A stretch of DNA of 64,000 bases from Neisseriaceae bacterium (GTDB lineage Bacteria; Pseudomonadota; Gammaproteobacteria; Burkholderiales; Neisseriaceae). The notes under the pieces were generated by a model. It worked only from the letters and a program-made list of their open reading frames with translations, searched no databases and was not told the DNA's origin. The translations under genes were made by a program, and so were the position numbers. Where the stretch lies: positions 12,315 to 76,314 of the forward strand of contig JAFTFY010000008.1 in the NCBI GenBank assembly GCA_017458185.1. The letters are read 5' to 3'. This document shows, piece by piece, positions 133-62,109 of the stretch. The first letter of the stretch is position 1; each line of letters opens with the position of its first letter.

Positions 133-320
133 ATTTTTATGAAGATTAAATCTTTTCAGGCAGCCTGAAAACAAGTTCAATCAACGCCGTGTGGTGAATA
201 AATCTATCCAAAATATACCATTCTGTTGTAAAATAAGCGGTTTGCAAAAAAAATCGCAACAAACTCGATACGCTTATTAACCACTTGATTTTTATAAAGA
301 ATTTTTAAGGAAACAACAAT

Positions 321-3300
321 ATGCCAAAACGCAGTGATTTGAAAACCATTTTAATTATCGGCGCAGGTCCGATTGTGATTGGTCAGGCGTGTGAGTTTGA
401 CTATTCTGGGGCACAGGCGTGTAAAGCCTTGCGTGAAGAGGGCTATCGTGTGGTGTTGGTTAATTCCAACCCTGCCACGATTATGACTGACCCTGAAATG
501 GCGGATAAAACTTATATTGAGCCGATTGTGTGGCAGACTTTGGAAAAAATCATCGCCAAAGAACGCCCAGACGCTGTTTTGCCGACTATGGGCGGGCAAA
601 CGGCTTTGAATGCCGCTTTGGATTTGGCTCGTCATGGCGTGCTGGAAAAATACGGCGTAGAACTCATCGGTGCAACGGAAGATGCGATTGATAAAGCCGA
701 AGACCGTGGGCGTTTTAAGGAGGCGATGGAAAAAATCGGCTTGAAAACGCCGAAATCGTTTATTTGTCATACAATGGAAGAAGCACTGAACGCTCAAAGC
801 GAAGTGGGTTTTCCGACTTTAATTCGTCCGTCTTTTACAATGGGCGGTTCTGGTGGCGGTATTGCGTATAACAAGGAAGAGTTTTTGGCGATTTGCGAGC
901 GTGGTTTTGACGCTTCGCCCACGCACGAATTGTTGGTGGAACAATCCATTTTGGGCTGGAAAGAATACGAAATGGAAGTGGTGCGTGATAAAAACGACAA
1001 CTGCATTATCGTGTGTTCGATTGAAAACTTTGACCCTTGCGGCGTGCATACGGGCGATTCCATCACGGTTGCCCCTGCACAAACCTTGACGGATAAAGAA
1101 TATCAAATTATGCGTAATGCGTCTTTGGCGGTGTTGCGTGAAATCGGCGTGGATACAGGCGGCTCGAATGTGCAGTTTGCAGTTAATCCCAAAAACGGCG
1201 AGATGATTATTATTGAGATGAATCCGCGTGTGTCCCGTTCGTCTGCGTTAGCGTCCAAAGCAACAGGTTTTCCGATTGCCAAAATCGCCGCTAAACTCGC
1301 TGTGGGCTACACTTTGGACGAGTTGAAAAACGATATTACAGGCGGCAGAACGCCTGCGTCTTTTGAGCCGTCTATTGATTATGTGGTTACCAAAATTCCA
1401 CGCTTTGCGTTTGAAAAATTCCCTGCGGCGGACGATCGTTTAACCACGCAAATGAAATCGGTGGGCGAAGTGATGGCGATTGGCAGAACTTTCCAAGAAA
1501 GTATGCAAAAAGCCTTGCGTGGCTTGGAAACTGGCTTATCAGGCTTGGACGAACGCTCAACCGATTTGGAAGAAATCAAAAGCGAAATTTCCGACCCAGG
1601 TGCGGAACGCTTGCTGTTTGTGGCAGACGCTATGCGTTTGAGTTTAAGCGTGGAAGAATTGTATAAACAAACAGGCATAGACCCTTGGTTCTTGGCAAAT
1701 ATTGAAGATTTAATCAACGAAGAAAAACAAATCGTTTCAGGCAGCCTGAAAGACTTGGATTTCAATCGTATGCGAACCTTAAAACGCAAAGGTTTTTCGG
1801 ATAAACGCATTGCGACATTGTTAAATATTAGCGAAAAAGAAGTCAGACAACACCGCTACGCTTTGAACTTACACCCAGTGTATAAACGCGTGGATACTTG
1901 TGCGGCAGAGTTTGCAACCGACACGGCTTATCTTTATTCTTCATACGAAGAAGAGTGCGAAGCAGCACCCTCTGACCGCAAAAAAATTATGATTTTAGGC
2001 GGCGGTCCAAACCGTATCGGACAAGGCATTGAGTTTGATTACTGCTGCGTGCATGCGGCATTGTCTTTGCGTGAAAGCGGCTGGGAAACGATTATGGTCA
2101 ATTGCAACCCCGAAACCGTTTCCACTGACTACGACACTTCCGACCGCCTGTATTTTGAACCGCTGACGCTTGAAGATGTATTAGAAATCGTGCGAACCGA
2201 AAATCCTGACGGCGTGATTGTGCATTACGGCGGACAAACGCCTTTGAAACTGGCGAATGATTTGGTTGAAAACGGCGTGAAAATTATCGGTACATCAGCC
2301 GATGCGATTGACGCAGCCGAAGACCGCGAACGCTTTCAACAAATCCTAAAAGATTTGGGTTTAAGGCAGCCTGAAAACCGCACTGCCACTAACGAACAAG
2401 ACGCATTGCGATTAGCAGAAGAAGTGGGCTATCCGCTGGTTGTGCGTCCGTCTTATGTTTTGGGCGGCAGAGCCATGCAAATTGTGCATTCCGCAGACGA
2501 ATTGCAAACCTATATGCGAGAAGCGGTGAAAGTCTCCAACGACAGCCCAGTTTTGTTAGACCATTATTTAGACAATGCGATTGAAGTAGATGTGGATTGC
2601 GTGTGCGATGGCGAACAAGCCGTCATCGGCGGCATTATGCAGCACATTGAACAAGCAGGCGTGCATAGTGGCGACTCGGCGTGTTCCATTCCAGCCTATT
2701 CCTTATCCAAAGAAATTCAAGACGAAATCCGCCGTCAAACCAAAGCGATGGCGTTTGCCTTAAATGTCGTTGGTTTAATGAATGTGCAGTTTGCCGTCAA
2801 AGACGATGTGGTGTATGTGTTGGAAGTCAATCCCAGAGCCAGTCGCACCGTGCCATTTGTCTCCAAAGCCACAGGCGTGCCGTTGGCCAAAATCGCCGCA
2901 CGAGTGATGGCAGGCGAAAGCCTTAAATCGCAAGGCTTTGAAAAAGAAGTCATTCCAGAATATTTTGCGGTGAAAGAAGCCGTCTTCCCATTCATCAAAT
3001 TTCCAGGCGTAGATACCATTTTAGGGCCTGAAATGCGTTCCACAGGCGAAGTGATGGGTGTGGGCAAAACATTCTCCGAAGCCTACTTAAAAGCCCAATT
3101 AGGTGCAGGCGAAAAAATTCCGCACACAGGCAAAATCTTCTTATCCGTGCGAAACGAAGACAAAGGCAGCCTGAAAGCGATTGCCAAAAAATTCATCGCC
3201 GCAGGCTATTCACTATCAGGCACAGAAGGCACAGCAGCCTATCTACAAGCCGCAGGCATTGAGTGCGAGAAAATCAACAAAGTGCGAGAAGGTCGCCCGC

Positions 3301-3524
3301 ACATTGTCGATGCCCTAAAAAACGGCGAAATTGCGATGGCGGTGAATACGGTAAATAACGACGCAAAATCCATCAAAGACAGCCACGCCATACGCCGCAA
3401 CGCCTTGAACGGCAGAATTCCACTTTACACCACAACAGCAGGCGGAGCCGCCGTTGCCGAAGCGGTGCAAAGTTTGGACAAAACAAATGTGTATAGCGTG
3501 CAAGAATTGCATGGCTTGAAGTAG
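321..3524 (+). CDS. carB: carbamoyl-phosphate synthase large subunit
   Basis: 1067 aa with two ATP-grasp halves ([10 protein letters not shown].. and [10 protein letters not shown]..) and an MGS-like C-terminus. This is canonical CarB colinearity. Confidence 0.97.
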
Positions 3525-3542: not shown

Positions 3543-3587
3543 AAAAACACGCTGCCTGAAATACTTTCAGGCAGCGTGTTTTTTTTC
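3543..3587 (+). terminator. Rho-independent terminator of carB, built from two inverted degenerate DUS
   Basis: aaaaacacgctgcctgaaa-tac-tttcaggcagcgtgttttttt forms a long perfect stem followed by a T-run. Confidence 0.8.
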
Positions 3588-3604
3588 AGGCAGCCTGAAA
3601 ACAC

Positions 3605-3638
3605 AATAAAATATCTTCCGTTAGGAAGATATTTTATT
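3605..3638. terminator. bidirectional hairpin terminator (end of the minor-pilin operon)
   Basis: aataaaatatcttcc-gtta-ggaagatattttatt is a perfect 15-bp stem with A/T runs on both sides, 12 nt from the stop at 3650. Confidence 0.7.
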
Positions 3639-3649
3639 CAAACAAACCA

Positions 3650-4054
3650 TTAATCTTTAATTCGTCTTGCCCAAGCACACACCGAATCGTAAGTACAATT
3701 AGAATAAGTAAATTGACCTGTTTTTAAATTCAAAGAAACTTCCGCTCCAAACTTATTGGTCGCCTTTTTCTTGGCTGTCAAAGTGAAGGTGTCTGCACTT
3801 ACATCTAAATCGTGATATTTCGCTAAATCACCACCAGATTTATACTTACTTTTATCAGCAGGATATTTTCCTTCTTTAAGAAAATTCGCCTGTGCCTCTT
3901 GGCGAGCCTGATTTAAGTAGGCTTTGGCAGTGGTTATTCGTCCTTTTTCTTGATAACGAGAATAAGACGGCATGGCGATTGCAGCCAAAATTGCAATAAT
4001 CGCCACCACAATCATCACTTCTGTTAAAGTAAAACCTCTATTGAGCGTGTTCAT
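3650..4054 (-). CDS. type IV minor pilin (PilE/PilX-like, fifth gene of the minor-pilin operon)
   Basis: The start was moved to the ATG at 4054, which has an AGGAGA RBS upstream. The N-terminus MNTLNRGFTLTEVMIVVAIIAILAAIA is a class III prepilin signal (G/FTLxE). A C-terminal Cys pair (CTYDSVC) is present. 134 aa. Confidence 0.8.
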   Translation of the reverse strand: MNTLNRGFTLTEVMIVVAIIAILAAIAMPSYSRYQEKGRITTAKAYLNQARQEAQANFLKEGKYPADKSKYKSGGDLAKYHDLDVSADTFTLTAKKKATNKFGAEVSLNLKTGQFTYSNCTYDSVCAWARRIKD

Positions 4055-4073
4055 TTTACATTCTCCTGTTTTT

Positions 4074-4682
4074 TTAAGATGAAGGAGCCACCAAAACGGT
4101 TTGTAAAGTGGAAATAGTATTAGGATTTTGACCCGTAGCACGAGCAGTAACACGGAACACGCGTATATTAGAAGCTCCGTCAATTCCTTCTTTAACACCT
4201 AAATATTCAACAATATAACGCGGTTTTTCAGCACCACCTGCAATATCCACTTCTTTGCCATGAGCAGTAAAACCATTGTTTTCCCAAAGTGGAAAACCAT
4301 TACTAATGGCAGTGGTTGCACCAACACCACACAAACCATTATAGCAATCATTGTCAGGAAAAGTAGTTTTTAATGTTGCTTCATCGACAGTCTCTTTTTT
4401 AATGGTGCTGGAACTGGTGCCAGAAGTAGAAGCAAAGACAACACCAGTAATTTCTTTTTCTGCTTCTAACAATGTTTTCTCTGCCAAACCTTTGGCAAAT
4501 TTTTGGTCGGCATTATTGGTGCTAATCCGCATTTCGGTATTGCTCACCTGTGCACCTGCTATCACTAACAACGCAATAACAACCATAATCATCATCACCA
4601 TCACCAAAGAAAAACCACTTTGCTGATGCTGTGTATTGATGAAACCATATTTTACAGTGACATTAATTTTCTGCTTGCACAT
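4074..4682 (-). CDS. PilX/PilK-like minor pilin
   Basis: QQSGFSLVMVMMIMVVIALLVIAG is a degenerate prepilin leader plus hydrophobic helix. The gene holds the fourth position in a fimT-pilV-pilW-pilX type operon and overlaps the pilW stop. Confidence 0.65.
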   Translation of the reverse strand: MCKQKINVTVKYGFINTQHQQSGFSLVMVMMIMVVIALLVIAGAQVSNTEMRISTNNADQKFAKGLAEKTLLEAEKEITGVVFASTSGTSSSTIKKETVDEATLKTTFPDNDCYNGLCGVGATTAISNGFPLWENNGFTAHGKEVDIAGGAEKPRYIVEYLGVKEGIDGASNIRVFRVTARATGQNPNTISTLQTVLVAPSS

Positions 4683-5869
4683 ACATTACCTCCGCGTATG
4701 GTTGATGTAATTACAAATTGTTCACCTTTATTACCAGAACTTACTGATCCACCACGCACATCTGGAAAATTATAAGTTAAGGTTAAACGCACAGACGACG
4801 GACCTTGATTTCCTCTTGTATCTTGTTCAACATCACCAGTACCAGCTTCTGCATCTCGAACAACATACAGTTGGTCATTAACAGTTGCAAGCGTTGCACC
4901 ACTACCTGCGGGAACAGAAGCACCAGCAGTTACAATCGTACCACTTGGGCATTCCCTTACAAATAAGTATTCCGCTGTCATTGCAGTAACATTTTTCGCT
5001 AGCTGTTGTGGTGGCGACCAATTATCGCCGTCACTACCAAATTCAAAACGATACAATGAAGATGAAGTTGGGTCATCAACATTTGGAATATTACCAACAA
5101 CATACGCCACAACTTTATACCGTTGTAAAATCATATCGGCGTATTGCCCCATTTTACTTACACCAGCAGGAAGATTGGCTGCGTTTGCAGGGGCAGGGGG
5201 CGTTACATTCATAGTTACTGGGTGTTCATTAGCTGTTTGGACAGCCGTAAGCTGTTGTACCTGCAAGGCATTGCAACCAGAAGCAACCACATAACCATTA
5301 CCTGATGCCAGAATACTTTCTACTATTTTATTGGGGTGTCCTTCTTTGGCATTAAAAGTTACTACATTACCTGCTTCACTCTTGTATGCCAAGGAACCCT
5401 CACCGTAATAAAACAGTAATACGCCACTTGTAGGAGTGAAAACGGCAGAATCCCAAATTCCTAAAGGAGTGCTACCTGTAGCCGTTGTTTGAGAAATCCA
5501 ACGCACGCCTGCGGATGGATTGGTTACATCATTCAATGTTGTCAATGCTTTTGCACCAGTTAATGTATTGGGTGCATCGAGTGCAATCTCACCATTCACA
5601 ACATCTGGAGCATTTTGTCGTCCTAATGACGCACAGCCAAACACACCTGCACTACGAGAATCTTGAGCAATCATTGTGGCTGCAGCACGCAAGTCTTGCA
5701 GAGTGGCGACACGAGCCATGCCAATATCGTTTAAGCGTTTGGTGTAAGAATAAAGGGCACCAGCACCAGCGATAACCACTAAACCCAAAACACTGGCAAC
5801 CATAAACTCAACCAAGGTAAAGCCTTGTTGGTTGCTATAATTTTGAATAGACATATTTTGTTTTTTCAT
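4652..5869 (-). CDS. pilW: PilW/PilJ-like minor pilin
   Basis: QQGFTLVEFMVASVLGLVVIAG is a prepilin methylation motif. The 405-aa size and operon position match PilW. Confidence 0.75.
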   Translation of the reverse strand: MKKQNMSIQNYSNQQGFTLVEFMVASVLGLVVIAGAGALYSYTKRLNDIGMARVATLQDLRAAATMIAQDSRSAGVFGCASLGRQNAPDVVNGEIALDAPNTLTGAKALTTLNDVTNPSAGVRWISQTTATGSTPLGIWDSAVFTPTSGVLLFYYGEGSLAYKSEAGNVVTFNAKEGHPNKIVESILASGNGYVVASGCNALQVQQLTAVQTANEHPVTMNVTPPAPANAANLPAGVSKMGQYADMILQRYKVVAYVVGNIPNVDDPTSSSLYRFEFGSDGDNWSPPQQLAKNVTAMTAEYLFVRECPSGTIVTAGASVPAGSGATLATVNDQLYVVRDAEAGTGDVEQDTRGNQGPSSVRLTLTYNFPDVRGGSVSSGNKGEQFVITSTIRGGNVCASRKLMSL

Positions 5870-5882
5870 TTACGCTCCCCTA

Positions 5883-6374
5883 TCAATCCATATTATCCAA
5901 TTCATATTTGTATTCAAATTCCTTATCCGATGAGCCGCCCATTTTCCATTTAACAGTTAGCGTTTCACCTGTAACAATTAACTCAACATTACCGTCAAGA
6001 CCTGTAACTTGACAAGCTTGCTGGAAGAATAAGTCTTGATGATATGTAACCAAAGCATCTCCTTTTGAATTTGCAGCAGGTCGTTGTGGTGTAGGAAGAT
6101 TTGAGCAATCAGTATTCTTTGCATAACGCCCATAATTGCGTTTCGTAACCAAACCATTGAGACCTAATACAGGATTCGTCATCATATTATCTGCCAAGTT
6201 TTCCGTTGCTTGGGCAATGATGGTTTGGTTTTCTGCCTCTTTAATGCCAATCGAAGTGCGTGTTTGCATGGCAATCAATGCCATTAAGCCCAACGCAAGG
6301 ATAAACATGGACACCAAAATTTCAATCAAGGTAGAGCCTTGTTGTTGAATAGGTGTGGTTTTTACGGTTTTCAT
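5883..6374 (-). CDS. pilV: PilV/PilI-like minor pilin
   Basis: The start was moved to the ATG at 6374 (AAGGA RBS). MKTVKTTPIQQQGSTLIEILVSMFILALGL is a prepilin motif. Confidence 0.75.
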   Translation of the reverse strand: MKTVKTTPIQQQGSTLIEILVSMFILALGLMALIAMQTRTSIGIKEAENQTIIAQATENLADNMMTNPVLGLNGLVTKRNYGRYAKNTDCSNLPTPQRPAANSKGDALVTYHQDLFFQQACQVTGLDGNVELIVTGETLTVKWKMGGSSDKEFEYKYELDNMD

Positions 6375-6391
6375 ATTTGTATCCTTCTTTC

Positions 6392-7075
6392 TTATTCGCA
6401 ATAGAAGAAATCGGTATTATTGCCATTTAATGCAGAGCGTTTTCCAGTATAAACAGAAGCACGACCTGTGGCATCAACACGAATAACTTCGCAAAAACGA
6501 GAAGTTTGGTTTCTGGTTGCTCGTTTATTATCTTTTACCATAATGCGTCCGATTGCACCTGGGGGAAGATTAACTTCCACTTTTTTATTATTCATTTTGC
6601 CAATACGCATTTGTCCATTGGAATAGTAAGTGAATGCCATAGTTTTATCATCAACATTCGTTCCCACAGCACTTCCTAATGCTTCTTGTGTTATTTTGTC
6701 GATTAGTACATTATTGTGTATGGAAACCACGCGTAAGTCTTCTCCCGTATTGTACTTTTGATCATCACCACCATTATTATCCGTAAATACAACTAACGCA
6801 TTCGCACTAGCCCAAGTGTCTGATGTGTCATTGAGTTTGCCATCTGTTCTTATACTGCCTGGCACAACAAACACAGGTTTTCCTCGACGCACGGCTTCGT
6901 TGTGTGCAAAGGTAAATGCGTTGGCGATTTCGTTGGCTTGTCCTTGTACTCTTTGGCGAGCCGCCATTGCTCCCATATTGGGTACGGCGAGTGTGGCGAA
7001 GATGGCTGCCAGAGCCACGACTATCATCAGTTCGGTTAAGGTAAAGCCTTGTTGTTTTAAATGAGTGCGTTTCAT
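6392..7075 (-). CDS. GspH/FimT-family minor pilin (PilH-like)
   Basis: MKRTHLKQQGFTLTELMIVVALAAIFATLAVP is a prepilin motif. This is the first gene of the operon and its size is typical of FimT. Confidence 0.8.
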   Translation of the reverse strand: MKRTHLKQQGFTLTELMIVVALAAIFATLAVPNMGAMAARQRVQGQANEIANAFTFAHNEAVRRGKPVFVVPGSIRTDGKLNDTSDTWASANALVVFTDNNGGDDQKYNTGEDLRVVSIHNNVLIDKITQEALGSAVGTNVDDKTMAFTYYSNGQMRIGKMNNKKVEVNLPPGAIGRIMVKDNKRATRNQTSRFCEVIRVDATGRASVYTGKRSALNGNNTDFFYCE

Positions 7076-7252
7076 AGAACATACCCCAGTTTTGCTGTGT
7101 TTTTAGTATGATAAACAAGATATTTCAATCATGTTATCACTTTTTGATTAAAGGTTATTTACTGCGATAAGCGTTATTATAGCAACCTGAACAGTCATTC
7201 GACAAAATAAAGCCGAATTTTTTGTGTTATCGGCTTTATTTGTGTTGTTTAT

Positions 7253-8536
7253 TTAGTTGCTCTTTTTCAAAGGTTGCAATAGCGTTATATCGTCTTCGTG
7301 CATGTCTGCTCTTTTGGCGGCGTGTTTGCTAATCACCAAACGCAGGCGATCCATTTCTTTTTTGCGACTGAGTAACTCGTCTTCTTCATCGTCCTTGCGT
7401 GATTTTTGCGGCGGACGATGTAGATAACGGTCATCGTAGTCGTCATCGCTATGGCGAGATGATACACGAGAACGGCGGTCGCGTGGGTCTTCGTCATCGT
7501 CATAGCGGCTGCGTGCAGGCAGACGATAATTGCGTTCATCGTCATAATCGTCATCATAACGGCTTCTTGGACGAGAACGGTAGCCTCGTTCGTCTTCATA
7601 ATCGTCATCATAACGACTTCTGGGACGAGAACGGTAACCGCGGTCGTCATCAAAATCGTCTTCATAACGACTTCTGGGACGAGAACGGTAACTACGGTCG
7701 TCTTCATAATCGTCATCATAACGACTTCTGGGACGAGAACGGTAGCCGCGGTCGTCTTCGTAATCGTCATCATAACGGCTTCTTGGGCGAGAGCGATAAC
7801 CGCGTTCATCTTCAAAATCGTCTTCATAACGACTTCTTGGACGAGTGCGATAACCGCGTTCGTCATCATAATCGTCATCGTCATAACGATTTCTTGGACG
7901 AGAACGGTAGTCTCGTTCGTCTTCATAGTCGTCATCATCGTAACGACTGCGAGAACGCATACGGCGTTCGTCTTTATCGTCATCACGATAGGCTTCACGG
8001 GTTTTTATTGTTGTTTTGATTTCGCTTTTTTCGCTACTTTCACCCAGTGAAGAAATTTCTGAATCTAAATCCAATGCGGGCAATTTGTTTTCATTAACAC
8101 GAGTAAGCGTAGGGTTGCGAAGCGAACGAATATCGGGTTGATGACCGAAAATCATATTTTGTTCGACATCGCTACCTAAATCGCTTGACCAGTCTAATTC
8201 GGCATGCCAAGAGAAGTCTAAATCGTGTGCCCACGGCAAAAGCACGGCTCTGCCTGGTGAAGTGGGTTCGGAATAAGTGCCTGGGAAAGGGGGCGGTTCA
8301 ATTGTGCCAGGAGCACCACGGTCATCGCGTTGAAGATAGCAATATAAACGGTTGCCGTAGGTAATGGTGCCTAAATAAGAACCATTGGGCGAATACACTT
8401 CGTTATCGTCCCACGGTGTCCAACCAATCCAGCGACTGTCGCGGTCGAATACATAACGCCGCTTGCGAAAGGCAATCCATCTGCCTGCTGAATCAAATAG
8501 ATAGTTAATGCTGACGGTTCCTGATGATGTTCTCAT
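7253..8536 (-). CDS. hypothetical protein: N-terminal W/Y/G-rich beta-type domain plus ten 18-aa Arg/Asp/Tyr-rich tandem repeats
   Basis: The start was set at the ATG at 8536, with AAGGAG 10 nt upstream. The repeat unit is RSRPRSRYDDDYEDERGY. A hairpin terminator lies at 7205-7245 on the minus strand. Confidence 0.7.
   Translation of the reverse strand: MRTSSGTVSINYLFDSAGRWIAFRKRRYVFDRDSRWIGWTPWDDNEVYSPNGSYLGTITYGNRLYCYLQRDDRGAPGTIEPPPFPGTYSEPTSPGRAVLLPWAHDLDFSWHAELDWSSDLGSDVEQNMIFGHQPDIRSLRNPTLTRVNENKLPALDLDSEISSLGESSEKSEIKTTIKTREAYRDDDKDERRMRSRSRYDDDDYEDERDYRSRPRNRYDDDDYDDERGYRTRPRSRYEDDFEDERGYRSRPRSRYDDDYEDDRGYRSRPRSRYDDDYEDDRSYRSRPRSRYEDDFDDDRGYRSRPRSRYDDDYEDERGYRSRPRSRYDDDYDDERNYRLPARSRYDDDEDPRDRRSRVSSRHSDDDYDDRYLHRPPQKSRKDDEEDELLSRKKEMDRLRLVISKHAAKRADMHEDDITLLQPLKKSN
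7421..7963 (-). repeat. 54-nt tandem coding repeat, about 10 units
   Basis: acgagaacggta recurs at exact 54-nt spacing (for example 7571 and 7625). The units translate to 18-aa R/S/P/Y/D/E repeats. Confidence 0.9.
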
Positions 8537-10326: not shown

Positions 10327-10328
10327 AT

Positions 10329-10361
10329 AAAAAACCGTTCAGGCAGCCTGAACGGTTTTTT
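10329..10361 (+). terminator. Rho-independent terminator with a DUS at its centre
   Basis: aaaaaccgttcaggc-a-gcctgaacggtttttt. Confidence 0.8.
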
Positions 10362-15117: not shown

Positions 15118-15119
15118 TA

Positions 15120-53027: not shown

Positions 53028-53064
53028 CCTTTCAGGCAGCCTGAAAATAAAGGAATACGAAACT

Positions 53065-53871
53065 ATGGACTGGATACAAGCGTTAATTTTAGGGATTATT
53101 CAAGGCTTAACCGAGTATTTGCCTGTGAGTAGCAGTGGGCATTTGGCGATTGGGGCGGCTTTGTTTGGCATTGACGATAGCGAAAATTTGGCTTTTACCG
53201 TTGCCGTGCATGTGGCAACTGTGCTTTCTACTTTGGTGATTTTATGGCGTGAAATTTCTTGGATTTTCAAAGGCTTATTTAAGTTTGAAAACAACGCCGA
53301 AACGCAATATGTCATCAATATTCTGATTTCGATGATTCCGATTGGCATTGTTGGCTTGTTTTTTAAAGATTATGTCGAACAAATTTTCGGCAGCGGTTTG
53401 CTGATTGTGGGCTGTTGCTTGCTGATGACGGCGGCGTTGCTGATATTCAGTTTTTACGCCAAACCCCGCATTAAAGACACCATTTCCAAAAAAGACGCAT
53501 TCATTATCGGCATGGCACAAGCGTTGGCGGTTTTGCCAGGTTTGTCGCGTTCAGGCAGCACCATTGCCACGGGCTTATTATTGGGCAATAAAAAAGAACG
53601 CTTGGCTCAATTTTCGTTTTTAATGGTGATTCCGCCGATTTTGGGCGAAGCCTTGTTGGACATTATCAAGGCGATGAAAGGGCAGGAAGTGTTTGGCGGT
53701 ATCGAACCTTTGCCCTTAATCGTGGGCTTTCTTGCCGCTTTTATCAGCGGTTGCTTGGCGTGTAAATTGATGATTAGCATCGTCAAACGCGGTAAATTGG
53801 TGTATTTCGGCATTTATTGTGCGATTGTAGGAGCACTGCTACTGATGACACAGTTGTTTCAGGCTGCCTGA
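53065..53871 (+). CDS. uppP: undecaprenyl-diphosphate phosphatase
   Basis: [18 protein letters not shown] and [10 protein letters not shown] are UppP/BacA motifs. The start is the ATG at 53065. The TGA stop lies inside the DUS at 53858. Confidence 0.93.
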
Positions 53872-53917
53872 ATATATTAAAAAACCTTTAATCTTGCGTG
53901 ATTAAAGGTTTTTTATT

Positions 53918-54211
53918 TTAAGCCATTGCAGGCAAGGGTTGCGATAGTGGAATAACCACATTGCGTGGGCGTTGTTTGGCTTGCCATAAGTCGTATTTCA
54001 TTTGTATGCGTAACCAAAATTCTGCGTCTGTGTTGGGCAGTAATTCGGCAAATTTAATTGCCATATCTGCGGTTACGCCTTGCTTGCCATTGATAATGCG
54101 TGAAAGCGTGGCACGCGTTATGCCTAATCTTTGTGCGGTTTCGGTAATATTTGCTCCGTTTAGGCATTCTTTAAATACTGCTCCTGCGTGCGGCGGGTTG
54201 TGCATTTCCAT
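53918..54211 (-). CDS. higA: HigA-family antitoxin (XRE HTH)
   Basis: HPGAVFKECL-like HAGAVFKECL and the HTH ITETAQRLGITRATLSRIINGK are present. The start is the ATG at 54211 with an AGGAG RBS, 10 nt after the higB stop. Confidence 0.85.
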   Translation of the reverse strand: MEMHNPPHAGAVFKECLNGANITETAQRLGITRATLSRIINGKQGVTADMAIKFAELLPNTDAEFWLRIQMKYDLWQAKQRPRNVVIPLSQPLPAMA

Positions 54212-54221
54212 TTTTTTACTC

Positions 54222-54500
54222 CTAATGATAATCTTGATAATCAACAATTTCTGCGTCTTCACCTTTGAATGTAAAGGTTATTCGCCAGTTGCCATTCACG
54301 GATACGGCATAATGCCCTGCCAAGTCCCTTTTCAAAGGGTGAAATTGCCAACCTGGCATATCCATTTGCTTGGGATTTTGAGCACTGTCTAATGCAATGA
54401 GTAATATTTTCAAACGGTTGGCATGTTTGGCAATAATGCCTGATTTATCGCCAGTTTTGAAAAACCGCTCTAATCCTTTGTGCTTGAAACTTTTAATCAT
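54222..54500 (-). CDS. higB: HigB-family toxin (RelE/ParE superfamily, plasmid maintenance system killer)
   Basis: MIKSFKHKGLERFF..G.. and WRITFTF.GEDAEIVDYQDYH form the typical HigB pattern. Confidence 0.85.
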   Translation of the reverse strand: MIKSFKHKGLERFFKTGDKSGIIAKHANRLKILLIALDSAQNPKQMDMPGWQFHPLKRDLAGHYAVSVNGNWRITFTFKGEDAEIVDYQDYH

Positions 54501-54606
54501 TGCTGTTGTCTGTTGATTGAGTGTATAGTTGTATTATACGGTTATACAGTTTAATCTGTCAAAATAAATATTCAGGCAGCCTGAAAGGATATTTTAATAT
54601 GAGAAT

Positions 54607-55362: not shown

Positions 55363-55626
55363 GTTTTAATCCTTTCAAAGAAAAGTGGAGTGGAACAATT
55401 ATCGTTTTACAAGTGTACCTTGTCAAACTCCCATATACAGTCAGTATAGGAGTTATAGACAAGAAAGAAACTCACACGGTGTGAGTGTTTTAGGCAATCT
55501 ATTAAAAAAAAATAACAATGTAAAAATTCTTTCAGGCAGCCTGAAATATGATTAAACGCAAATTGAAAATGCGAAAAATAGTGTATTATCGCCATTTTCA
55601 ACACAATAGATGATAAGGATTGAACA

Positions 55627-56099: not shown

Positions 56100-56105
56100 A
56101 AAGAC

Positions 56106-56318
56106 ATTCCCTGCGGTGTTCGATTTCAGCATATACTCCTTTGAACCAATACATTCGCTTTTGGGGGTGAAAGTTTGATGGGCGTGCGCGTTCCGTGTGA
56201 ATGTACCCGAAATCAGACGGCACTTACCGACCTTACCACAAGGTTCAAGCGATTTTCGCTGTAACGGCACTCGCGGGGTATTTAATATTTAAAGACGGCT
56301 GTGCCGTCTTTTTGTTTT
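56106..56318 (+). ncRNA. candidate structured sRNA of about 210 nt (possibly 6S-like; identity unverified)
   Basis: The promoter sits just upstream. Long-range pairings CCCUGCGG/CUCGCGGG, UCAGC/GCUGA, UUGAACC/GGUUCAA and UACAUUC/GAAUGUA give a rod with a large internal loop. The terminator gacggc-tgt-gccgtc plus a T-run lies at 56293-56318. No credible ORF is present. Confidence 0.5.
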
Positions 56319-56323
56319 GAAAT

Positions 56324-56431
56324 TATAGTCGATTCACAGCAAAATCATGCAGCGTAACGATAGCCTTGCCGTATTATTTATACTGTCGCAGGCAAAGTTG
56401 CCTTGCCTGTTTTTGCTGTGAACCGACTATA
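56324..56431. mobile_element. Correia-like repeat-enclosed element (108 bp), inverted orientation
   Basis: The termini are TATAGTCGATTCACAGCAAAA ... TTTTGCTGTGAACCGACTATA. Confidence 0.85.
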
Positions 56432-56441
56432 TTTTGACTAC

Positions 56442-56715: not shown

Positions 56716-58656
56716 CTATACTCCGCTAACAGGCATTTCCCACGCAATCGCAATGGCGGAAAGCCAATCTTGTTCGCTGTTTGACAGCACTTCGTCAAAG
56801 TGAGCGATATTTTCTAATGCGGTTAAGATTTGTTGTTTATCTGTCGCTGACAAGCGGTCGAGTGTGTGTAGTAGACTGGATAAACGCCCTAATGGAATGT
56901 TGTCGCGATATGCTGTTAAGGGCAAGCCACATTCGGTTAAGGCTGCCTGAAAGGCTTGTTCGGCGTGGTGTCCGCTGTTGCTGTGTTGTGCGGTTAAGTT
57001 TAATAATTCAATGATTTCTGGTTTTAATTTATCTTTGCCAACAGGCGGCAAAAAGCCTGCCATCAGCGACATTTTCAGGCTGCCTGAAACGGCGGCATAA
57101 ACGCAATGTTCAAATAGGGTGATTTTGTCGTCTGATTTAATCACTTCTTGCAAAAAGTGTTTGTATTTATTGATATTTTCTTCGCCAATAATATTTAACC
57201 GCACATTCGGCAAGGCAACTGCCAACACCGCAAAACGGCGTTCATCAGGCAGAGCATGTTCTAATAAGTTTTTGATATTATTGTGTAATTCTTGGCTAAA
57301 TAATTCGGCAATATCCAAACATACTTTTTTATTATCGCTGTGGCGAGCCAGCATGGCAACCACAACCGCCGAAGCCTTTTCAGGCTGCCTTGCGGCGGCA
57401 AACCAGTAGGCTTCGTTCTCAACGGTTGTATCGTGTCTGCTTGCCCCGCCCATAAGCCCCAAAACTGCCGCCGTTGCCACTGTGTCATATACTATTTGAT
57501 GATTTTTATCAATCGTGGGGATAATTTCCAAATCATTGGGTGTTTTATAAGCGTTGCTGTCGCGAGAACCCAATATATGTGTAATTTTTGTTTGTTCTTC
57601 GTGTTCATATAATAAAGGTTCGTCCATATTGCTTAATGTTTCTTGGTTATCGGATAGAATTTTTTGAATGCGTTGTGCGGTATTCGGGTGCGTATGCAGC
57701 ATTTGAAATTCATAAATCGGATTATTGCCAAAAGTAAAAAGCAAATGTTCTAAATTTGTAGAAAAATCATCGGCAAATAAAATATATTTCCATTGCGGTT
57801 TTAAAGTTTTATTTAATGCAGAAGCCAAAGCATTGGGATAACGAGATAATTTAACCGCAATCGCGTCTATTTGAAAAACATTTTCACGGCAAATAATGGA
57901 TTTAATTATTTTGGCAGATAAATTACCTAAATATGCCACAATATACAATGGAAATAAAGCAATGGTTGTTAAGATTGTGCCAAAATAAGGGAGTAATTTA
58001 TTTTCTTGCTGGGTTTTAAGGTTTTGAATTTGCTTCATTGTATTCAAAAAATTTTTTTCTAAAAATGAATACAAAAATTGCAAACCAAATAAAACGCCGT
58101 ACATTAAAGTATTGAGCCGTGTGTAACCGTTAATAATTTGTGCCATTTCGTAGGCGATAACGGCTTGTAATTCATCGCGATTAAGATAATCCAAACAGCC
58201 TTGTGTGACACCAATCGCCATATCGGTCGGTTTTAGTCCTACGGCAAAAGCATTGATAGACGGTTCTTTGGCTAATACATAAATATGGGGAACAGGCACG
58301 CCTGCGGCGATTGCCATTTCTTCAACAATATTTTGTAATTGTGTTTTTCGGCTGTTATCTATTTCATTTAATAACGAGCCGCCTGCTTTATCAGATAGGC
58401 GGTTGCCTGTGGCGAGTAATTTTTTGACTTTATCAAATGACACGGAACAAATGGTTATAAAAAGTAGGATATTGATTGTGAGTAACGCGGGTAAGGACAT
58501 TCTGCCCCAAAAAGCCCAATCAATGGCTTTGGTGATGACAATCGTTAAAAGCAAAGATAACAGCAAAAACAAGGCGAACATAATTTTTTCTTGTTTTTGT
58601 GCTTGTTCTTGCTGTTTGTAAAAATTCATTGCCATTTTTGTTTCTCTCCTAAACAA
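56716..58656 (-). CDS. M48 (HtpX-like) peptidase-family membrane protein with a degenerate zinc motif and a large C-terminal domain
   Basis: The M48 layout is two TMs, then ..RDELQAVIAYEMAQIINGYTRLN.., then two TMs, then ..THPNTAQRI. YEMAQ occupies the place of HExxH. The C-terminal region of about 300 aa is uncharacterised. Confidence 0.8.
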   Translation of the reverse strand: MFRRETKMAMNFYKQQEQAQKQEKIMFALFLLLSLLLTIVITKAIDWAFWGRMSLPALLTINILLFITICSVSFDKVKKLLATGNRLSDKAGGSLLNEIDNSRKTQLQNIVEEMAIAAGVPVPHIYVLAKEPSINAFAVGLKPTDMAIGVTQGCLDYLNRDELQAVIAYEMAQIINGYTRLNTLMYGVLFGLQFLYSFLEKNFLNTMKQIQNLKTQQENKLLPYFGTILTTIALFPLYIVAYLGNLSAKIIKSIICRENVFQIDAIAVKLSRYPNALASALNKTLKPQWKYILFADDFSTNLEHLLFTFGNNPIYEFQMLHTHPNTAQRIQKILSDNQETLSNMDEPLLYEHEEQTKITHILGSRDSNAYKTPNDLEIIPTIDKNHQIVYDTVATAAVLGLMGGASRHDTTVENEAYWFAAARQPEKASAVVVAMLARHSDNKKVCLDIAELFSQELHNNIKNLLEHALPDERRFAVLAVALPNVRLNIIGEENINKYKHFLQEVIKSDDKITLFEHCVYAAVSGSLKMSLMAGFLPPVGKDKLKPEIIELLNLTAQHSNSGHHAEQAFQAALTECGLPLTAYRDNIPLGRLSSLLHTLDRLSATDKQQILTALENIAHFDEVLSNSEQDWLSAIAIAWEMPVSGV

Positions 58657-58814
58657 ATAACGCTTTAACTTCGTTGAAACTTCGGTTTGATGACTTCGTC
58701 ATCTACTTTTACAAACTTCGTTTGTAAAAGGTTGATATTTCGTATCAACTAAACCTTGTTTTCAGGCTGCCTGAAAAGGTATTCAGGCTGCCTGAAAAAG
58801 ATGATTGAATGAAA

Positions 58815-59420: not shown

Positions 59421-59631
59421 TTTTATCACTCCTGTAACAAGTTGAAGATTAAAAGAAGTCTTTATTATAGACAAAAAATCTTTTCAGGCAGCCTGAAAAT
59501 GTTATTTTTTATATTTTTAAGCAATTTTTTGGGGATTTTTGCAACAGTTTGTCAATCATTTTTTCAGGCTGCCTGAAACGCATTAACTTATATTACAATA
59601 CCCCCTTAATTTTATACAGCAAGCAATCAAA

Positions 59632-62031
59632 ATGACGGAAATTCCAAACAACCATAACGAACAACTTTCATTAGGCGAATACGCCCAGCAGGCTTATTTG
59701 GCTTATGCGATGAGCGTGGTGCGTTCTCGGGCTTTGCCTGATGTGGCGGACGGTCAAAAGCCTGTGCAGCGGCGGATTTTGTATGCCATGCACGATATGC
59801 GTTTGAATGCGGGGGCGAAGCCTGTGAAATCTGCCCGTGTGGTGGGCGAGATTTTGGGGAAATATCACCCGCATGGGGACGCGTCTGCGTATGACGCTAT
59901 GGTGCGTATGGCACAGGATTTTACCCTGCGTTATCCTTTGATTGACGGTATCGGCAACTTTGGTTCGCGAGACGGCGATGGGGCGGCGGCAATGCGTTAT
60001 ACCGAAGCACGGCTCACACCGATTGCGTCTTTGTTGCTGTCGGAATTAGAACAAGGCACGGTGGATTTTATTCCTAATTATGACGGTGCGTTTGATGAGC
60101 CGTCTGTTTTGCCTGCTCGCTTGCCGTTTGTTTTATTGAATGGGGCAAGCGGTATTGCGGTGGGCTTGGCAACTGAAATTCCGCCACATAATTTGCGTGA
60201 AGTGGCAGCGGCTTCTGTGGCTTTATTGCGTAATCCAAATTTGCAAACCGCTGAAATACTGCAATATTTACCTGCACCTGATTTTCCAGGTGGCGGTCAG
60301 ATTATTTCTTCGCCTGATGAAATTGTGAAAATTTACGAAACAGGCAAAGGCTCAATTCGTGTGCGGGCAAGGTATGAAGTGGAAAAACTGGCACGCGGTC
60401 AGTGGCGGATTGTGGTATCCGAGTTACCGCCTGCTGTGTCGGCACAAAAAATCTTGGCACAAATTGAAGAGATGACCAACCCCAAACCGAAAGCGGGCAA
60501 AAAACAGTTAAGCCAAGAACAACAAAACACCAAGTCGCTTATGCTGTCGTTAATTGACAAGGTGCGTGATGATTCGGACAACGAATCGCCTGTGCGGTTA
60601 GTATTTGAACCTAAATCATCTCGTCTTGACCCTGATGAATTTATCAACACGCTAATGGCGAACACCGATTTAGAATGTAATTCGCCTGTAAATTTGGTGA
60701 TGATGGGGCAAAACGGCAAACCTGCCCAAAAAGGTTTGAAACAAATTTTGACAGAATGGTTGGCGTTTCGTGTGGCAACCGTTACACGCCGCTTGCAATT
60801 TCGTTTGAGTGAAGTACAAAAACGCATTCATATTTTGCAAGGCAGAATGACGGTTTTTTTGCATATTGATGAAGTCATCAAAGTTATTCGTGAATCGGAC
60901 GAACCCAAGCCAGAGTTAATGCGTGCCTTTGGTCTCACGGAAATTCAAGCCGAAGATATTTTAGAAATTCGTCTGCGGCAATTAGCACGATTAGAATGGA
61001 TTAAATTAGAAAGCGAATTAGCCAAATTACAAGAAGAAGAAGGCAACCTGAAACACTTATTAAGCGATGAAACAGCGAAAAAACGCTTAATTATCAAAGA
61101 AATACAAGACGATGCTAAACAATATGGCGATGACCGCCGCACGCTCGTAGAAGCCGCCGAACGCGCCGTATCCGTGCAAACGGTTGCGGACGAGCCGATT
61201 ACCATTATTCTGTCGCAAAAAGGCTGGGTTCGCACACGACAAGGGCATAATTTGGATTTATCGCAAATCACATTCAAAGACGGCGATGATTTGCGGCAAA
61301 CGGTTGAAAGCCGCACGGTTGCGGAAATTGTGCTGTTAGATAACTTGGGGCGTTCTTACACCGTTGCCGCCGCCGACATTCCAGGCGGACGCGGGGACGG
61401 CGTGCCGATTTCGTCTCTCATCGACTTACAAGCAGGTGCCCAAATCATCACCCTAATATCAGGGCTGCCTGAAAACCGATATTTGCTTGCAAATACAGGC
61501 GGTTACGGATTTATTTGTGCATTAGGCGATATGCTTTCCAAAGTCAAAGCAGGCAAAGTGCTGATGACTCTCAATGACAATGAAAAAATGCTGGTGCCGT
61601 GTGCCGTGCCCAACAGTTTCAGGCTGCCTGAAAATAATGATACCGTCATTGCGAGTGAGCCGCAAAGCGGCGAGCGTGGCAATCTCCTTATGTCGGAGCG
61701 TGTTCCCAATCTTTCAGGCAGCCTGAAAGTCTTGCTTGCCACAAGTGAGCCGAGAATACTTGCCTTTGACTTAACCGAATTACGGCAAATGAGTAAAGGT
61801 CGCGGCTTGCAATTAGTCAATCTGCCCGATAAAGAAACGCTCACCCACATTATTTTAACGGATAAAGAAGAATACACAGTCGAAAGCACAGGGCGGCGTG
61901 GTGCGGTGCATACCGACACCCTGCGTTTGTCCGATGTGCTGAATAAAAGAGCCAAAAAAGGCAAACCCATACACCTTTCAGGCAGCCTGAAAGCATTAAA
62001 TGTGGAACAAAAATGGGCAGAAATGCCGTAA
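59632..62031 (+). CDS. parC: DNA topoisomerase IV subunit A
   Basis: [32 protein letters not shown] (ParC-type PVQRRI) and the active-site region [10 protein letters not shown] are present. At 799 aa the protein is longer than usual because of an internal repeat module. Confidence 0.95.
61618..61727 (+). repeat. in-frame intragenic repeat module inside parC (DUS - CATTGCGAG/CGTGGCAATC hairpin - DUS)
   Basis: ttcaggctgcctgaa ... gtcattgcgagtgagccgcaaagcggcgagcgtggcaatctcc ... ttcaggcagcctgaa translates as [37 protein letters not shown]. Confidence 0.8.
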
Positions 62032-62109
62032 GATTTGATAAAAGCAAAAGTTTCAGGCAGCCTGAAAGCATATAATAAGCACTTTGAAAAGGCATTAGGA
62101 ATAATCTTT

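Follow-up and report, generated by a model that had tools for sequence, protein, structure and literature searches.

Introduction

In Neisseria, the receptor ComP on the type IV pili binds double-stranded DNA that contains a DNA uptake sequence (DUS). The present work deals with a short palindromic repeat in a 64-kb stretch of DNA from a Neisseriaceae bacterium (contig JAFTFY010000008.1; the whole stretch is called the window below) and with its relation to the DUS dialects described in this family.

The dialects concerned here, kingDUS, simDUS and eikDUS, were first found in Kingella oralis, Simonsiella muelleri and Eikenella corrodens, respectively (Frye et al. 2013, PMC3630211). In the same study 2257 kingDUS and 2292 simDUS were counted in S. 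muelleri, in which a single comP was found, and the two were described as overlapping 'dyad symmetry structures', for which dimer-based recognition was suggested; a similar dyad of king3DUS and king2DUS was noted in Kingella, and these overlapping dyads were contrasted with the non-overlapping inverted DUS pairs of terminators. Later the 'AG-king/simDUS dyad' was recognized as the most abundant arrangement in S. muelleri, prevalent also in Alysiella crassa and Kingella negevensis and present in a gonococcal/meningococcal integrative and conjugative element (PMC7371117, 2020), and both 12-mers were reported as enriched in A. filiformis, A. crassa, S. muelleri and K. oralis (PMC10715097, 2023).

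The idea of a palindromic element with two faces has therefore already been published, together with a mechanistic suggestion, and the repeat of the window is this known king/sim dyad. The novelty of our results is limited to the host lineage, the extreme share of dyads, a gradient across the family and the fast-flipping centre of the palindrome.

Identity and abundance of the repeat

We estimate, with a probability of about 0.8, that the repeat represents the DUS of an uncultured, ruminant-associated Neisseriaceae lineage, in the form of the AG-king/simDUS dyad. The function of the dyad in DNA uptake is proposed by homology with the known dialects.

The 15-mer TTCAGGCWGCCTGAA was matched 63 times in the window, between positions 155 and 62066, with 0.00 matches expected from 100 dinucleotide-preserving shuffles, and its density of about one palindrome per kb was similar in the 9.7 kb upstream of the window and in the loci of a sister lineage. 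The numbers of the initial annotation, which had counted 63 perfect copies with W=A in 34 and W=T in 29 of them on the plus strand, about 25 further imperfect copies and about nine copies of a third variant, were all reproduced: the central W was A 34 times and T 29 times, the near-copies comprised 20 with one mismatch and 5 with two (0.2 of the latter expected from mononucleotide shuffles), and the eikDUS-type variant AGGCTACCTGAA occurred exactly nine times, five on the plus and four on the minus strand. Its naming of these sequences as Kingella, Simonsiella and Eikenella types also agrees with Frye et al. 2013 (PMC3630211). Perfect copies and near-copies together cover 2.1% of the window.

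Counted on both strands, kingDUS AGGCAGCCTGAA occurs 70 times and simDUS AGGCTGCCTGAA 73 times, and 63 of each belong to a dyad (86-90% of the 12-mers). Since these are the two strands of one 15-mer, the arrangement can be described as one palindrome with two faces. The nested counts decrease only slowly from the 10-mer GCWGCCTGAA (153) through the 12-mer (143) to the 15-mer (126); perfect palindromes hold 82% of the 10-mers and, in the comparison of full palindrome and bare 12-mer that had been proposed earlier and was made for the window, 88% of the 12-mers. The 17-mer TTTCAGGCWGCCTGAAA was found 51 times. W=A and W=T are a single double-stranded element in two orientations, thus their equal frequencies show only that the orientation is immaterial. 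The broken dyads of the window consist of 7 king-only and 10 sim-only copies, and their surviving face is uninformative.

AGGCWGCCTGAA is identical to the published AG-kingDUS plus AG-simDUS, and it shows the DUS consensus (CTG at +6 to +8, A at +10, AG/AT prefix). The 12-mers of AT-DUS, AG-DUS, mucDUS, king3DUS and wadDUS were found 0 times in the window.

Host lineage

The exact glycyl-tRNA synthetase subunit (GlyS) of the window was found only in metagenome assemblies, one contig of which (305 kb) was 100% identical to the window across the 4 kb fetched. Among species representatives the best GlyS match (92%) was 'Neisseriaceae bacterium RGIG6059', a metagenome-assembled genome (MAG) from sheep omasum, followed at 59-65% by Kingella, Eikenella, Neisseria and Alysiella and by MAGs of Simonsiella, Conchiformibius and unnamed bacteria. 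For PurD the closest matches were unnamed metagenome proteins (90-94% identity); the next stood at 75%, followed by Neisseria at 72-74%. The matches of both proteins assign the window to a deep-branching Neisseriaceae lineage that is uncultured and comes from ruminants. Simonsiella muelleri was considered as the source of the window and rejected on the same GlyS evidence: the exact protein is only metagenomic, the sheep-omasum MAG is closest and other Neisseriaceae stand at 59-65%. No rRNA gene was found in the window.

Anatomy and decay of the palindrome

When the perfect copies were oriented by W, the preceding base was T in 53/63 and the following base was A in 59/63, so the unit is a 17-bp palindrome composed of two overlapping 13-mers AGGCWGCCTGAAA, which lie on opposite strands and share their first 9 bases. 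The flanks further out are AT-rich and statistically symmetric. Each copy carries one kingDUS face with A at +3 and one simDUS face with T at +3; A at +11 is common in other dialects too. Most copies (46) have perfect arms of 7-8 bp; the arms reach 9-10 bp in 14 copies and 16 bp in the remaining 3. As the initial annotation had pointed out, a single copy can fold into a hairpin with a 7-bp stem and a CWG loop; this structure is weak, with -4.5 kcal/mol as DNA and -5.9 kcal/mol (6 pairs) as RNA.

The imperfect copies are not altered evenly. Among the 20 one-mismatch copies, 9 have changed from C to T at position 7 (equivalent to G to A at position 9) and 7 at position 3/13 (TTAAGG), while positions 4, 5, 11 and 12 are invariant. 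The nine 12-mers of the AGGCTACCTGAA type had been taken for a third dialect. Their number stood, their status did not: 8/9 are TTCAGGCTACCTGAA, a single transition away from the palindrome, the remaining one has an additional mismatch, and such copies interconvert with perfect copies in the sister lineage, thus a separate dialect was rejected and the variant is regarded as a derivative of the palindrome. None of the 5 two-mismatch copies contains a pair of compensating symmetric changes, which argues that the sequence is conserved and not the base-pairing.

The position-7/9 decay was seen at 13451, 21148, 23079, 23905, 24175, 38090, 45182, 50576 and 51149. It affects the first C of the central GCWGC and could come from deamination, if this cytosine is methylated, or from weaker selection at +2/+4. 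GCWGC is a known methyltransferase target; a methyltransferase for it was not seen in the window.

Orthologous copies in the sister lineage

Two loci of the sister lineage, L086 and L003, could be aligned with the window. L086 differs from the window by 5.0% overall, and in the 25 orthologous copies compared only 9/350 non-centre positions of the motif differ, which is below this background (P=0.018), although the margin is modest; 4 of these 9 differences are the position-7/9 transition.

The central W behaves differently. It is flipped in 5/25 copies relative to L086 and in 3/10 copies relative to L003, one of the latter at an indel border; examples from the two comparisons are 10338, 11643, 16100, 19429, 24218, 46056, 47473 and 48299. 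Ordinary A<->T changes amount to 1.0% overall and 1.7% in intergenic DNA of the same alignments, hence the flips (8/35) represent a 13-23-fold excess (P about 1e-7). We infer that the two W orientations are probably equivalent in function, and that the centre may be a mutational hot spot, changed either by a single transversion or by inversion of the hairpin loop, which yield the same product.

Differences in gene content between the sister lineages, with DUS at their borders, were observed as well. The rlmE-yhbY-cmk segment (window 43903-46042) is not at the corresponding place in L003; an insert of about 2.8 kb is present in L003 between the DUS at 48175 and 48299 (window 48189-48324); and L086 has an ankyrin-repeat gene (6451-7896) that is not in the window. 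These differences fit an exchange of cassettes by transformation.

Dyad share across the Neisseriaceae

For comparison, loci of about 20 kb around glyS and purD were collected from relatives, which were reached through PurD homologues and exact-protein look-ups; a metagenome scan with FtsK gave at least three loci, which were distant. The share of palindromic copies varies widely among them. In king-dominant loci of the K. oralis type 11-30% of the kingDUS are in dyads, and simDUS is seen only as the reverse side of such dyads (6/6, 6/6, 1/1). The mirror image was obtained for the sim-dominant loci of Stenoxybacter and Neisseria sp. HSC-16F19, with 22-25% in dyads and every kingDUS a back face (2/2, 3/3). 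A. crassa, the Simonsiella MAG and the Conchiformibius MAG are intermediate (41-79%). The dyad-rich group (70-96%, summarized as 80-96% for the lineage of the window) consists of the window, the sister lineage and an uncultured relative (L088; PurD 75%, GC content 36%): L003 has 15 king and 20 sim 12-mers with 14 of each in dyads, L086 has 27 and 32 with 26 dyads, and L088 has 15 and 13 with 12 dyads.

Because the minority dialect occurs only as the back face of dyads, king- or sim-dominant genomes discriminate A from T at +3. The statement of the initial annotation that the two dialects are not alternatives holds for the window (63/70 and 63/73 in dyads) and fails for these related genomes: king and sim are alternatives in some genomes and are merged into one symmetric element in others.

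Two other repeats were encountered among the relatives. In L004 (MAG Neisseriaceae RGIG7913, water-buffalo reticulum, GC content 35%) the asymmetric AGTCTGCCGGAA(A) occurs 14 times in 16.3 kb, for example at 830, 2308, 4608, 7466 and 12084. It is absent from the eight dialects of Frye et al. and from the three added in bioRxiv 10.1101/2025.10.24.684340, and it is a candidate for an undescribed DUS dialect, in which CTG at +6 to +8 would read CGG, or the register would be shifted. A AAGGTTGGCCGCA-type 12-mer is present at 6-16 copies per 22 kb in Vogesella spp. and two MAGs (L039, L041, L044, L052, L054, L050); it might be an uptake sequence or a repetitive extragenic palindromic (REP) element.

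Genomic context, terminators and larger repeats

Genes were called from open reading frames (ORFs) with a codon-usage score; the resulting 55 genes, with 3 more plausible ORFs accepted by hand, make the window about 82% coding. Most of the calls gave clear matches to Pfam/NCBIfam, among them carB, rdgB, trmB, murB, purD, trpB, ftsK, hda, panD, hisG, panB, folD, rlmE, glyS, secB, uppP, parC, pilS and others; cmk was named from its Pfam label. Perfect copies of the dyad are intergenic in 46 cases (73%) and coding in 17, that is 4.0 per kb against 0.32 per kb, and many of them stand within a few bases of gene ends, one of the intergenic copies providing the TGA stop of uppP; 10 imperfect copies are inside genes. 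The share of perfect palindromes is 17/27 (63%) in coding and 46/61 (75%) in intergenic DNA (P=0.31), and palindromy thus belongs to the element itself rather than to terminators.

All 17 coding copies use the two stop-free frames and the frame that reads TGA is unused, in agreement with the kingDUS/simDUS frame usage reported in a 2025 preprint. In the frame TCA-GGC-WGC-CTG, Ser is preferred over Cys by 10:2, and this is the only real bias of W. The genes parC, ftsK, hda and rdgB hold 7/17 coding copies in 13% of the coding length (P=0.003); a DUS bias towards genome-maintenance genes in Neisseriaceae was reported in the same preprint. Along the window the two orientations of W are not clustered (34:29, runs test z = -0.84), and neither GC skew nor the direction of neighbouring genes was related to them. 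In gaps between co-directional genes W=A was on the sense strand in 17/25 intergenic copies (P=0.11). The orientation of W is random in intergenic DNA.

Three copies (10338, 23022 and 46056) are extended to hairpins with 16-bp arms, flanked by A and T runs, between convergent genes. The extended hairpin at 10338 reaches -15.3 kcal/mol as DNA and -19.5 kcal/mol as RNA, and at 46056, where W is flipped in L003, the outer stem of L003 shows a compensatory G/C to C/G change. Apart from these three copies, the family does not look like Rho-independent terminators: its stem is weak, and an A follows on the 3' side of 59/63 copies.

Five of the 63 perfect copies form the centre or the end of a composite palindromic repeat of about 200 bp, built in the order of (CAGTGAG)n heptamer repeats, a small hairpin GTTTTGCCTnnCGGCAAAAC, GATAACGCTTCGAT, the DUS, ATCGAAGCGTTATC, a hairpin and heptamer repeats again. 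The initial annotation had placed the motif at the centre of terminators and of several larger repeat families. This is right for the three terminators and for the five copies of one repeat family, whereas 55/63 copies are solitary, with unrelated flanks beyond the 17-mer. The family also differs from REP elements, bacterial interspersed mosaic elements and miniature inverted-repeat transposable elements (MITEs), since 17 perfect and 10 imperfect copies are intragenic and no flanks are shared except among the five composite-repeat copies. At the gathering threshold nothing in Rfam matched the repeat in the window; the only Rfam matches of the window were a 6S RNA (56105-56283, plus strand) and a tRNA (28648-28735, minus strand).

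A MITE family of about 110 bp, with terminal inverted repeats TATAGTCGGTTCACAGCAAAA...TTTTGCTGTGAATCGACTATA, was found in four copies in the window and in one copy in L003. Its core GACAGTATAAATAATACGGCAAGGC resembles the Correia element of Neisseria. Two of the four window copies have a DUS directly beyond their border (46056, 50806), and for a third the distance is about 25 bp (16732).

The pilin operon is free of DUS over its 5.4 kb (3600-8997). Upstream of this operon a 441-aa protein with internal repeats (7253-8578, minus strand) is encoded, for which only a weak 'beta-flower' match was obtained. Further genes of the window encode a BrnA-like antitoxin (36261-36614, plus strand), a 409-aa leucine-rich-repeat protein (51798-53027, plus strand) and a HigB/HigA toxin-antitoxin pair (53918-54500, minus strand). 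The contig L090, 100% identical to the window across an overlap of 13.5 kb, supplies the 9.7 kb directly upstream, in which a type I-F CRISPR-Cas system (cas1, cas2-3, csy1, csy2) occupies L090 1-6641, and a YoeB/RelB-type toxin-antitoxin pair is inserted between cas1 and cas2-3. Two perfect DUS dyads within cas2-3 suggest a long residence of this system in the genome.

Table 1. Dyad copies and associated features of the window, in order of position. Dyad copies are strand-neutral; perfect copies are pattern matches to the 15-mer and imperfect copies come from a mismatch scan. The strand is given in brackets where noted; mm, mismatch position(s).
Position	Feature	Centre or sequence	Context
155-169	perfect dyad	TTCAGGCAGCCTGAA, W=A	intergenic
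1736-1750	perfect dyad	W=A	coding (carB)
2361-2375	imperfect	TTAAGGCAGCCTGAA, mm 3	coding (carB)
3585-3599	perfect dyad	W=A	intergenic, convergent carB / pilin operon
3650-4057 (-)	134-aa minor pilin		last gene of minor-pilin operon; Pfam ComP_DUS (PF16732) 29.3 bits, cut-off 27.3
4074-7075 (-)	minor-pilin genes		pilX-like, pilW-like, pilV, fimT/gspH-like
8998-9012	perfect dyad	W=A	intergenic
9113-9127	imperfect	TTTAGGCTACCTGAA, mm 3, 9	intergenic
9673-9687	perfect dyad	W=A	coding (rdgB)
10323-10367	bidirectional terminator-type hairpin	16-bp arms AAAAAACCGTTCAGGC-A-GCCTGAACGGTTTTTT; centre dyad 10338-10352, W=A	between convergent genes
10497-10511	perfect dyad	W=A	intergenic
11244-11258	perfect dyad	W=T	intergenic
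11362-11376	perfect dyad	W=T	intergenic
11643-11657	perfect dyad	W=A	intergenic; W flipped in L086
11773-11787	perfect dyad	W=T	intergenic
13354-13368	perfect dyad	W=A	intergenic
13451-13465	imperfect (eikDUS face)	TTCAGGCTACCTGAA, mm 9	intergenic
13684-13698	imperfect	ATAAGGCTGCCTGAA, mm 1, 3	intergenic
14219-14233	imperfect	TTCAGACAGCCTGAA, mm 6	coding (murB)
14739-14849	composite palindromic repeat, half copy		DUS at end
14834-14848	perfect dyad	W=T	intergenic, end of composite-repeat half copy
15017-15129	composite palindromic repeat, half copy		DUS at end
15018-15032	perfect dyad	W=T	intergenic, end of composite-repeat half copy
16100-16114	perfect dyad	W=T	intergenic; L086 reads TTCAGGTAGCCTGAA
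16597-16706 (-)	MITE copy		
16732-16746	perfect dyad	W=T	intergenic
17387-17401	perfect dyad	W=T	coding (ABC ATPase)
18191-18205	perfect dyad	W=T	coding (ABC ATPase)
18923-18937	perfect dyad	W=A	within ORF without family match
19429-19443	perfect dyad	W=A	end of small ORF; W flipped in L086
19763-19777	imperfect	TTTACGCTGCCTGAA, mm 3, 5	intergenic
19787-19801	perfect dyad	W=A	intergenic
21148-21162	imperfect (eikDUS on - strand)	TTCAGGTAGCCTGAA, mm 7	L086 copy perfect
21163-21388	composite palindromic repeat, ~200 bp	centre perfect DUS 21260-21274, W=T	
23004-23054	bidirectional terminator-type hairpin	16-bp perfect arms AAAAAACCTTTCAGGC-T-GCCTGAAAGGTTTTTT; centre dyad 23022-23036, W=T	between convergent genes
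23079-23093	imperfect	TTCAGGTAGCCTGAA, mm 7	intergenic
23267-23281	perfect dyad	W=A	intergenic
23905-23919	imperfect	TTCAGGCTACCTGAA, mm 9	intergenic
24175-24189	imperfect	TTCAGGTAGCCTGAA, mm 7	intergenic
24218-24232	perfect dyad	W=A	intergenic; W flipped in L086
25556-25570	imperfect	TTAAGGCTGCCTGAA, mm 3	coding; L086 copy perfect
26537-26551	perfect dyad	W=T	intergenic
29474-29488	imperfect	TTCAGGCAGCGTTAA, mm 11, 13	coding (pmbA)
29525-29539	imperfect	TTCAGGCAGCCTGAT, mm 15	coding (pmbA)
30123-30350	composite palindromic repeat	centre perfect DUS 30251-30265, W=A	
31383-31397	imperfect	CGCAGGCAGCCTGAA, mm 1, 2	coding (ftsK)
31897-31911	perfect dyad	W=A	coding (ftsK)
31927-31941	perfect dyad	W=A	coding (ftsK)
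33555-33569	perfect dyad	W=A	21-bp ftsK-hda gap
33784-33798	perfect dyad	W=T	coding (hda)
34215-34229	perfect dyad	W=A	intergenic
34943-34957	perfect dyad	W=A	intergenic
36655-36669	imperfect	TTCAGGCTGCCTAAA, mm 13	intergenic
37352-37366	perfect dyad	W=A	near called 5' end of hisG
38090-38104	imperfect	TTCAGGCTACCTGAA, mm 9	intergenic
38927-38941	perfect dyad	W=T	intergenic
40606-40795	composite palindromic repeat	centre perfect DUS 40689-40703, W=A	element conserved in L003
40898-40912	perfect dyad	W=T	coding (AFG1-like ATPase); conserved in L003
41938-41952	perfect dyad	W=T	intergenic; conserved in L003
42078-42092	perfect dyad	W=T	intergenic
42890-42904	imperfect	TTCAGGCAGTCTGAA, mm 10	intergenic
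42981-42995	perfect dyad	W=T	intergenic
44141-44155	perfect dyad	W=A	intergenic
44808-44822	perfect dyad	W=T	intergenic
45182-45196	imperfect	TTCAGGTAGCCTGAA, mm 7	intergenic
45217-45231	perfect dyad	W=T	intergenic
45930-46039	MITE copy		
46038-46088	bidirectional terminator-type hairpin	16-bp perfect arms AAAAACCGTTTCAGGC-A-GCCTGAAACGGTTTTT; centre dyad 46056-46070, W=A	convergent cmk/glyS
46255-46269	imperfect	TTAAGGCTGCCTGAA, mm 3	coding (glyS); L003 identical
47473-47487	imperfect	TTAAGGCAGCCTGAA, mm 3	coding (glyS); W flipped in L003
48175-48189	perfect dyad	W=A	intergenic, border of indel vs L003
48299-48313	perfect dyad	W=T	intergenic, border of indel vs L003; W differs there
49248-49262	imperfect	TCCAGGCAGCCTGAA, mm 2	L003 copy perfect
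49732-49746	imperfect	TTCAGGCAGCCTTAA, mm 13	coding; L003 identical
50421-50435	perfect dyad	W=A	intergenic
50576-50590	imperfect	TTCAGGCAACCTGAA, mm 9	intergenic
50687-50797	MITE copy		
50806-50820	perfect dyad	W=T	intergenic, just outside Correia-like MITE
51149-51163	imperfect	TTCAGGCTACCTGAA, mm 9	intergenic
51718-51732	perfect dyad	W=T	intergenic
51749-51763	perfect dyad	W=A	intergenic
53031-53045	perfect dyad	W=A	called 5' end of uppP/bacA
53858-53872	perfect dyad	W=T	supplies TGA stop codon of uppP/bacA
54571-54585	perfect dyad	W=A	intergenic
55531-55545	perfect dyad	W=A	intergenic
56316-56434 (-)	MITE copy		
56937-56951	imperfect	TTAAGGCTGCCTGAA, mm 3	coding
57074-57088	perfect dyad	W=T	coding (M48 peptidase)
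58761-58775	perfect dyad	W=T	intergenic
58782-58796	perfect dyad	W=T	intergenic
59483-59497	perfect dyad	W=A	intergenic
59563-59577	perfect dyad	W=T	intergenic
61618-61632	perfect dyad	W=T	coding (parC)
61713-61727	perfect dyad	W=A	coding (parC)
61977-61991	perfect dyad	W=A	coding (parC)
62035-63726	pilS		
62052-62066	perfect dyad	W=A	called 5' end of pilS
L003 4894-5005	MITE copy		sister lineage
L003 16408-16625	composite palindromic repeat		sister MAG

Proposed model of the uptake signal and points against it

In the model that we favour, a receptor carried by the pilus would dock on either face of the palindrome, so that the signal would be independent of orientation and each copy would offer two overlapping sites. 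Preferential uptake of DNA that carries the motif, and its subsequent homologous recombination, would spread and maintain the motif, which would be tolerated mainly in intergenic DNA and in the two permissive reading frames. If the receptor accepted both A and T at +3, a palindromic copy might out-compete a one-faced copy and the genome would be pushed to about 88% dyads. A minority of the copies could have acquired a second role, at the core of bidirectional terminators or of the larger palindromic repeat.

Several points weigh against this identification. All counts come from about 75 kb of the host genome and about 60 kb of relatives, and simDUS and kingDUS are the only dialects without functional verification (PMC3630211). 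The near-all-dyad data fit a receptor reading both faces and a receptor reading one face equally well, and the king-only (7) and sim-only (10) copies are equally well regarded as decayed dyads. No convincing ComP was found in the approximately 75 kb of host sequence, and a regex scan of all fetched loci of the lineage revealed no further pilin. The pilin encoded at 3650-4057 resembles N. meningitidis ComP (query sequence checked against PDB 2M3K) only over the N-terminal helix; it has two cysteines, its nearest named relatives are PilE-type pilins of Burkholderiales with the same Pfam label, and its AlphaFold model (predicted local distance difference test score 82) matches generic pilins and not the ComP structures 2M3K, 5HZ7 and 2NBA. 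It belongs to the PilE/PilX class and is mentioned as context, with no claim of being a DUS receptor. A word-indexed search with N. meningitidis ComP reached only relatives of at least 51% identity. A look-up of PilS, by which the contig might have been extended downstream, matched no record. In favour of the identification, type IV pilus machinery, on which DUS uptake would depend, is encoded in the window by the minor-pilin operon (3650-7075) and pilS; PilQ, PilT, ComEA and ComA were not found in the host sequence at hand.

Alternative explanations

The symmetry of the element could reflect the receptor itself, as was proposed in print for S. muelleri (PMC3630211): a symmetric dimer would place one subunit on each half-site GCCTGAAA, with W as an unread spacer. 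This suggestion is in line with the perfect two-fold symmetry of the motif, with the symmetric composition of its flanks and with the contrast between conserved arms and a centre that is free to change between A and T. However, neither G nor C occurs at the centre (AGGCCGCCTGAA and AGGCGGCCTGAA were found 0 times in the window), thus W is no free spacer but is either read or under some constraint. Furthermore, related genomes carry dense one-faced DUS with 11-30% dyads, which means that asymmetric sites suffice for the receptor of the family and that it tells A and T apart at +3, and the word 'dimer' does not occur in a 2025 ComP-DNA modelling paper (word search). We regard recognition by a dimer as unlikely. 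It is also conceivable, though rather improbable, that only one face is the uptake signal and palindromy was selected for a hairpin, acting as a terminator or transcript stabiliser like the inverted pairs of Neisseria. The concentration of copies in intergenic DNA, often a few bases from gene ends, and the three bidirectional terminators, one of them with a compensatory stem change in the sister MAG, would suit such a role, and about half of all DUS were located in predicted terminators in the 2025 preprint. The bare hairpin, however, is weak (-4.5 to -5.9 kcal/mol), its 3' flank is A and its 5' flank T, with no 3' T-run, and 46/63 copies possess arms of 7-8 bp only. Moreover, a terminator inside a gene would do damage, yet the share of perfect palindromes is about the same among coding as among intergenic copies, and it is the arm sequence that is conserved, with no covarying stems.

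Spreading of the motif within mobile repeats (MITEs or the composite palindrome) instead of by uptake bias is highly improbable. Five copies are at the centre or end of the composite repeat and three are beside Correia-like MITEs, but the other approximately 55 perfect copies have unrelated flanks beyond the 17-mer, in-frame copies are present in carB, ftsK and parC and near-copies in glyS, and the positions are conserved between sister lineages. We give as little credit to a role outside DNA uptake, whether as a REP-like element, as an operator bound by a dimeric regulator, or as a target of restriction-modification or methylation with GCWGC at its centre. The palindrome has an operator-like size, and the commonest decay, C to T at the first C of GCWGC (9/20), would fit deamination of methylcytosine. 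Nevertheless, DUS dialects of this bacterial family have exactly the same sequence, related genomes carry the same core asymmetrically, and a density of about 1 per kb with in-frame copies in core genes is a signature of uptake sequences and not of REP elements or operators.

A more far-reaching version of the uptake model is that the DUS of the ruminant clade is a near-obligate palindrome whose orientation is actively scrambled by loop inversion or template switching and whose receptor is two-faced or dimeric. We consider this version speculative and doubt that all its parts apply. If it were true, uptake bias would have driven the fusion of two dialects into a single self-symmetrising signal, and the gradient from 11% to 96% dyads would record a relaxed specificity of the receptor at +3.

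Significance

If the repeat is a DUS, self-recognition by such sequences would also operate in an uncultured branch of the Neisseriaceae associated with ruminants, which provides the most extreme case of king/sim dyads so far. Together with its relatives it forms a natural series of one-faced king, one-faced sim, mixed and almost fully palindromic genomes, and this series could be used to map the ComP residues that read +3 and to test the uptake of palindromic against one-faced sites, questions which date from 2013. A minor point, but one that lends itself to testing, is the very fast flipping of the centre, which concerns mutation at short palindromes. It should be emphasized that the current picture of how DUS work is unchanged by these results.

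Comparison with known systems

The closest counterpart is the AG-king/simDUS dyad of S. muelleri, which has an identical sequence, with AGGCAGCCTGAA and AGGCTGCCTGAA overlapping on opposite strands by 9 bp, near-equal numbers of the two 12-mers, copies in and outside genes and a frequency of about 1 per kb. The two cases differ in the host, which is here an uncultured ruminant lineage with GlyS 59-65% identical to other Neisseriaceae, and in the share of dyads, 86-90% here as compared with '1294 occurrences' among the 2257+2292 12-mers of S. muelleri (PMC3630211) and 50-55% in the Simonsiella MAG locus. The one-faced kingDUS and simDUS genomes have the same 12-mer core and keep the A at +11, but only 11-30% of their dominant dialect is palindromic, whereas the lineage of the window shows no visible discrimination between A and T at +3. 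Overlapping DUS variants on opposite strands are also known from the king3DUS/king2DUS dyad of K. denitrificans (PMC3630211, Fig. S6), the core of which, AAGCAGCCTGCA, is different and occurs 0 times in the window.

With the inverted-pair terminators of Neisseria the window shares the use of DUS as a stem at convergent genes (here at 10338, 23022 and 46056). Neisseria terminators need two separate DUS, while in the window the inner stem is supplied by a single self-complementary copy and lengthened by unique flanks. More distantly, the uptake signal sequence (USS) of Pasteurellaceae is likewise a short motif found about once per kb; uptake bias maintains it, terminators are enriched in it, and only certain reading frames accommodate it. 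Its sequence is unrelated and asymmetric, and its predicted receptor is ComN.

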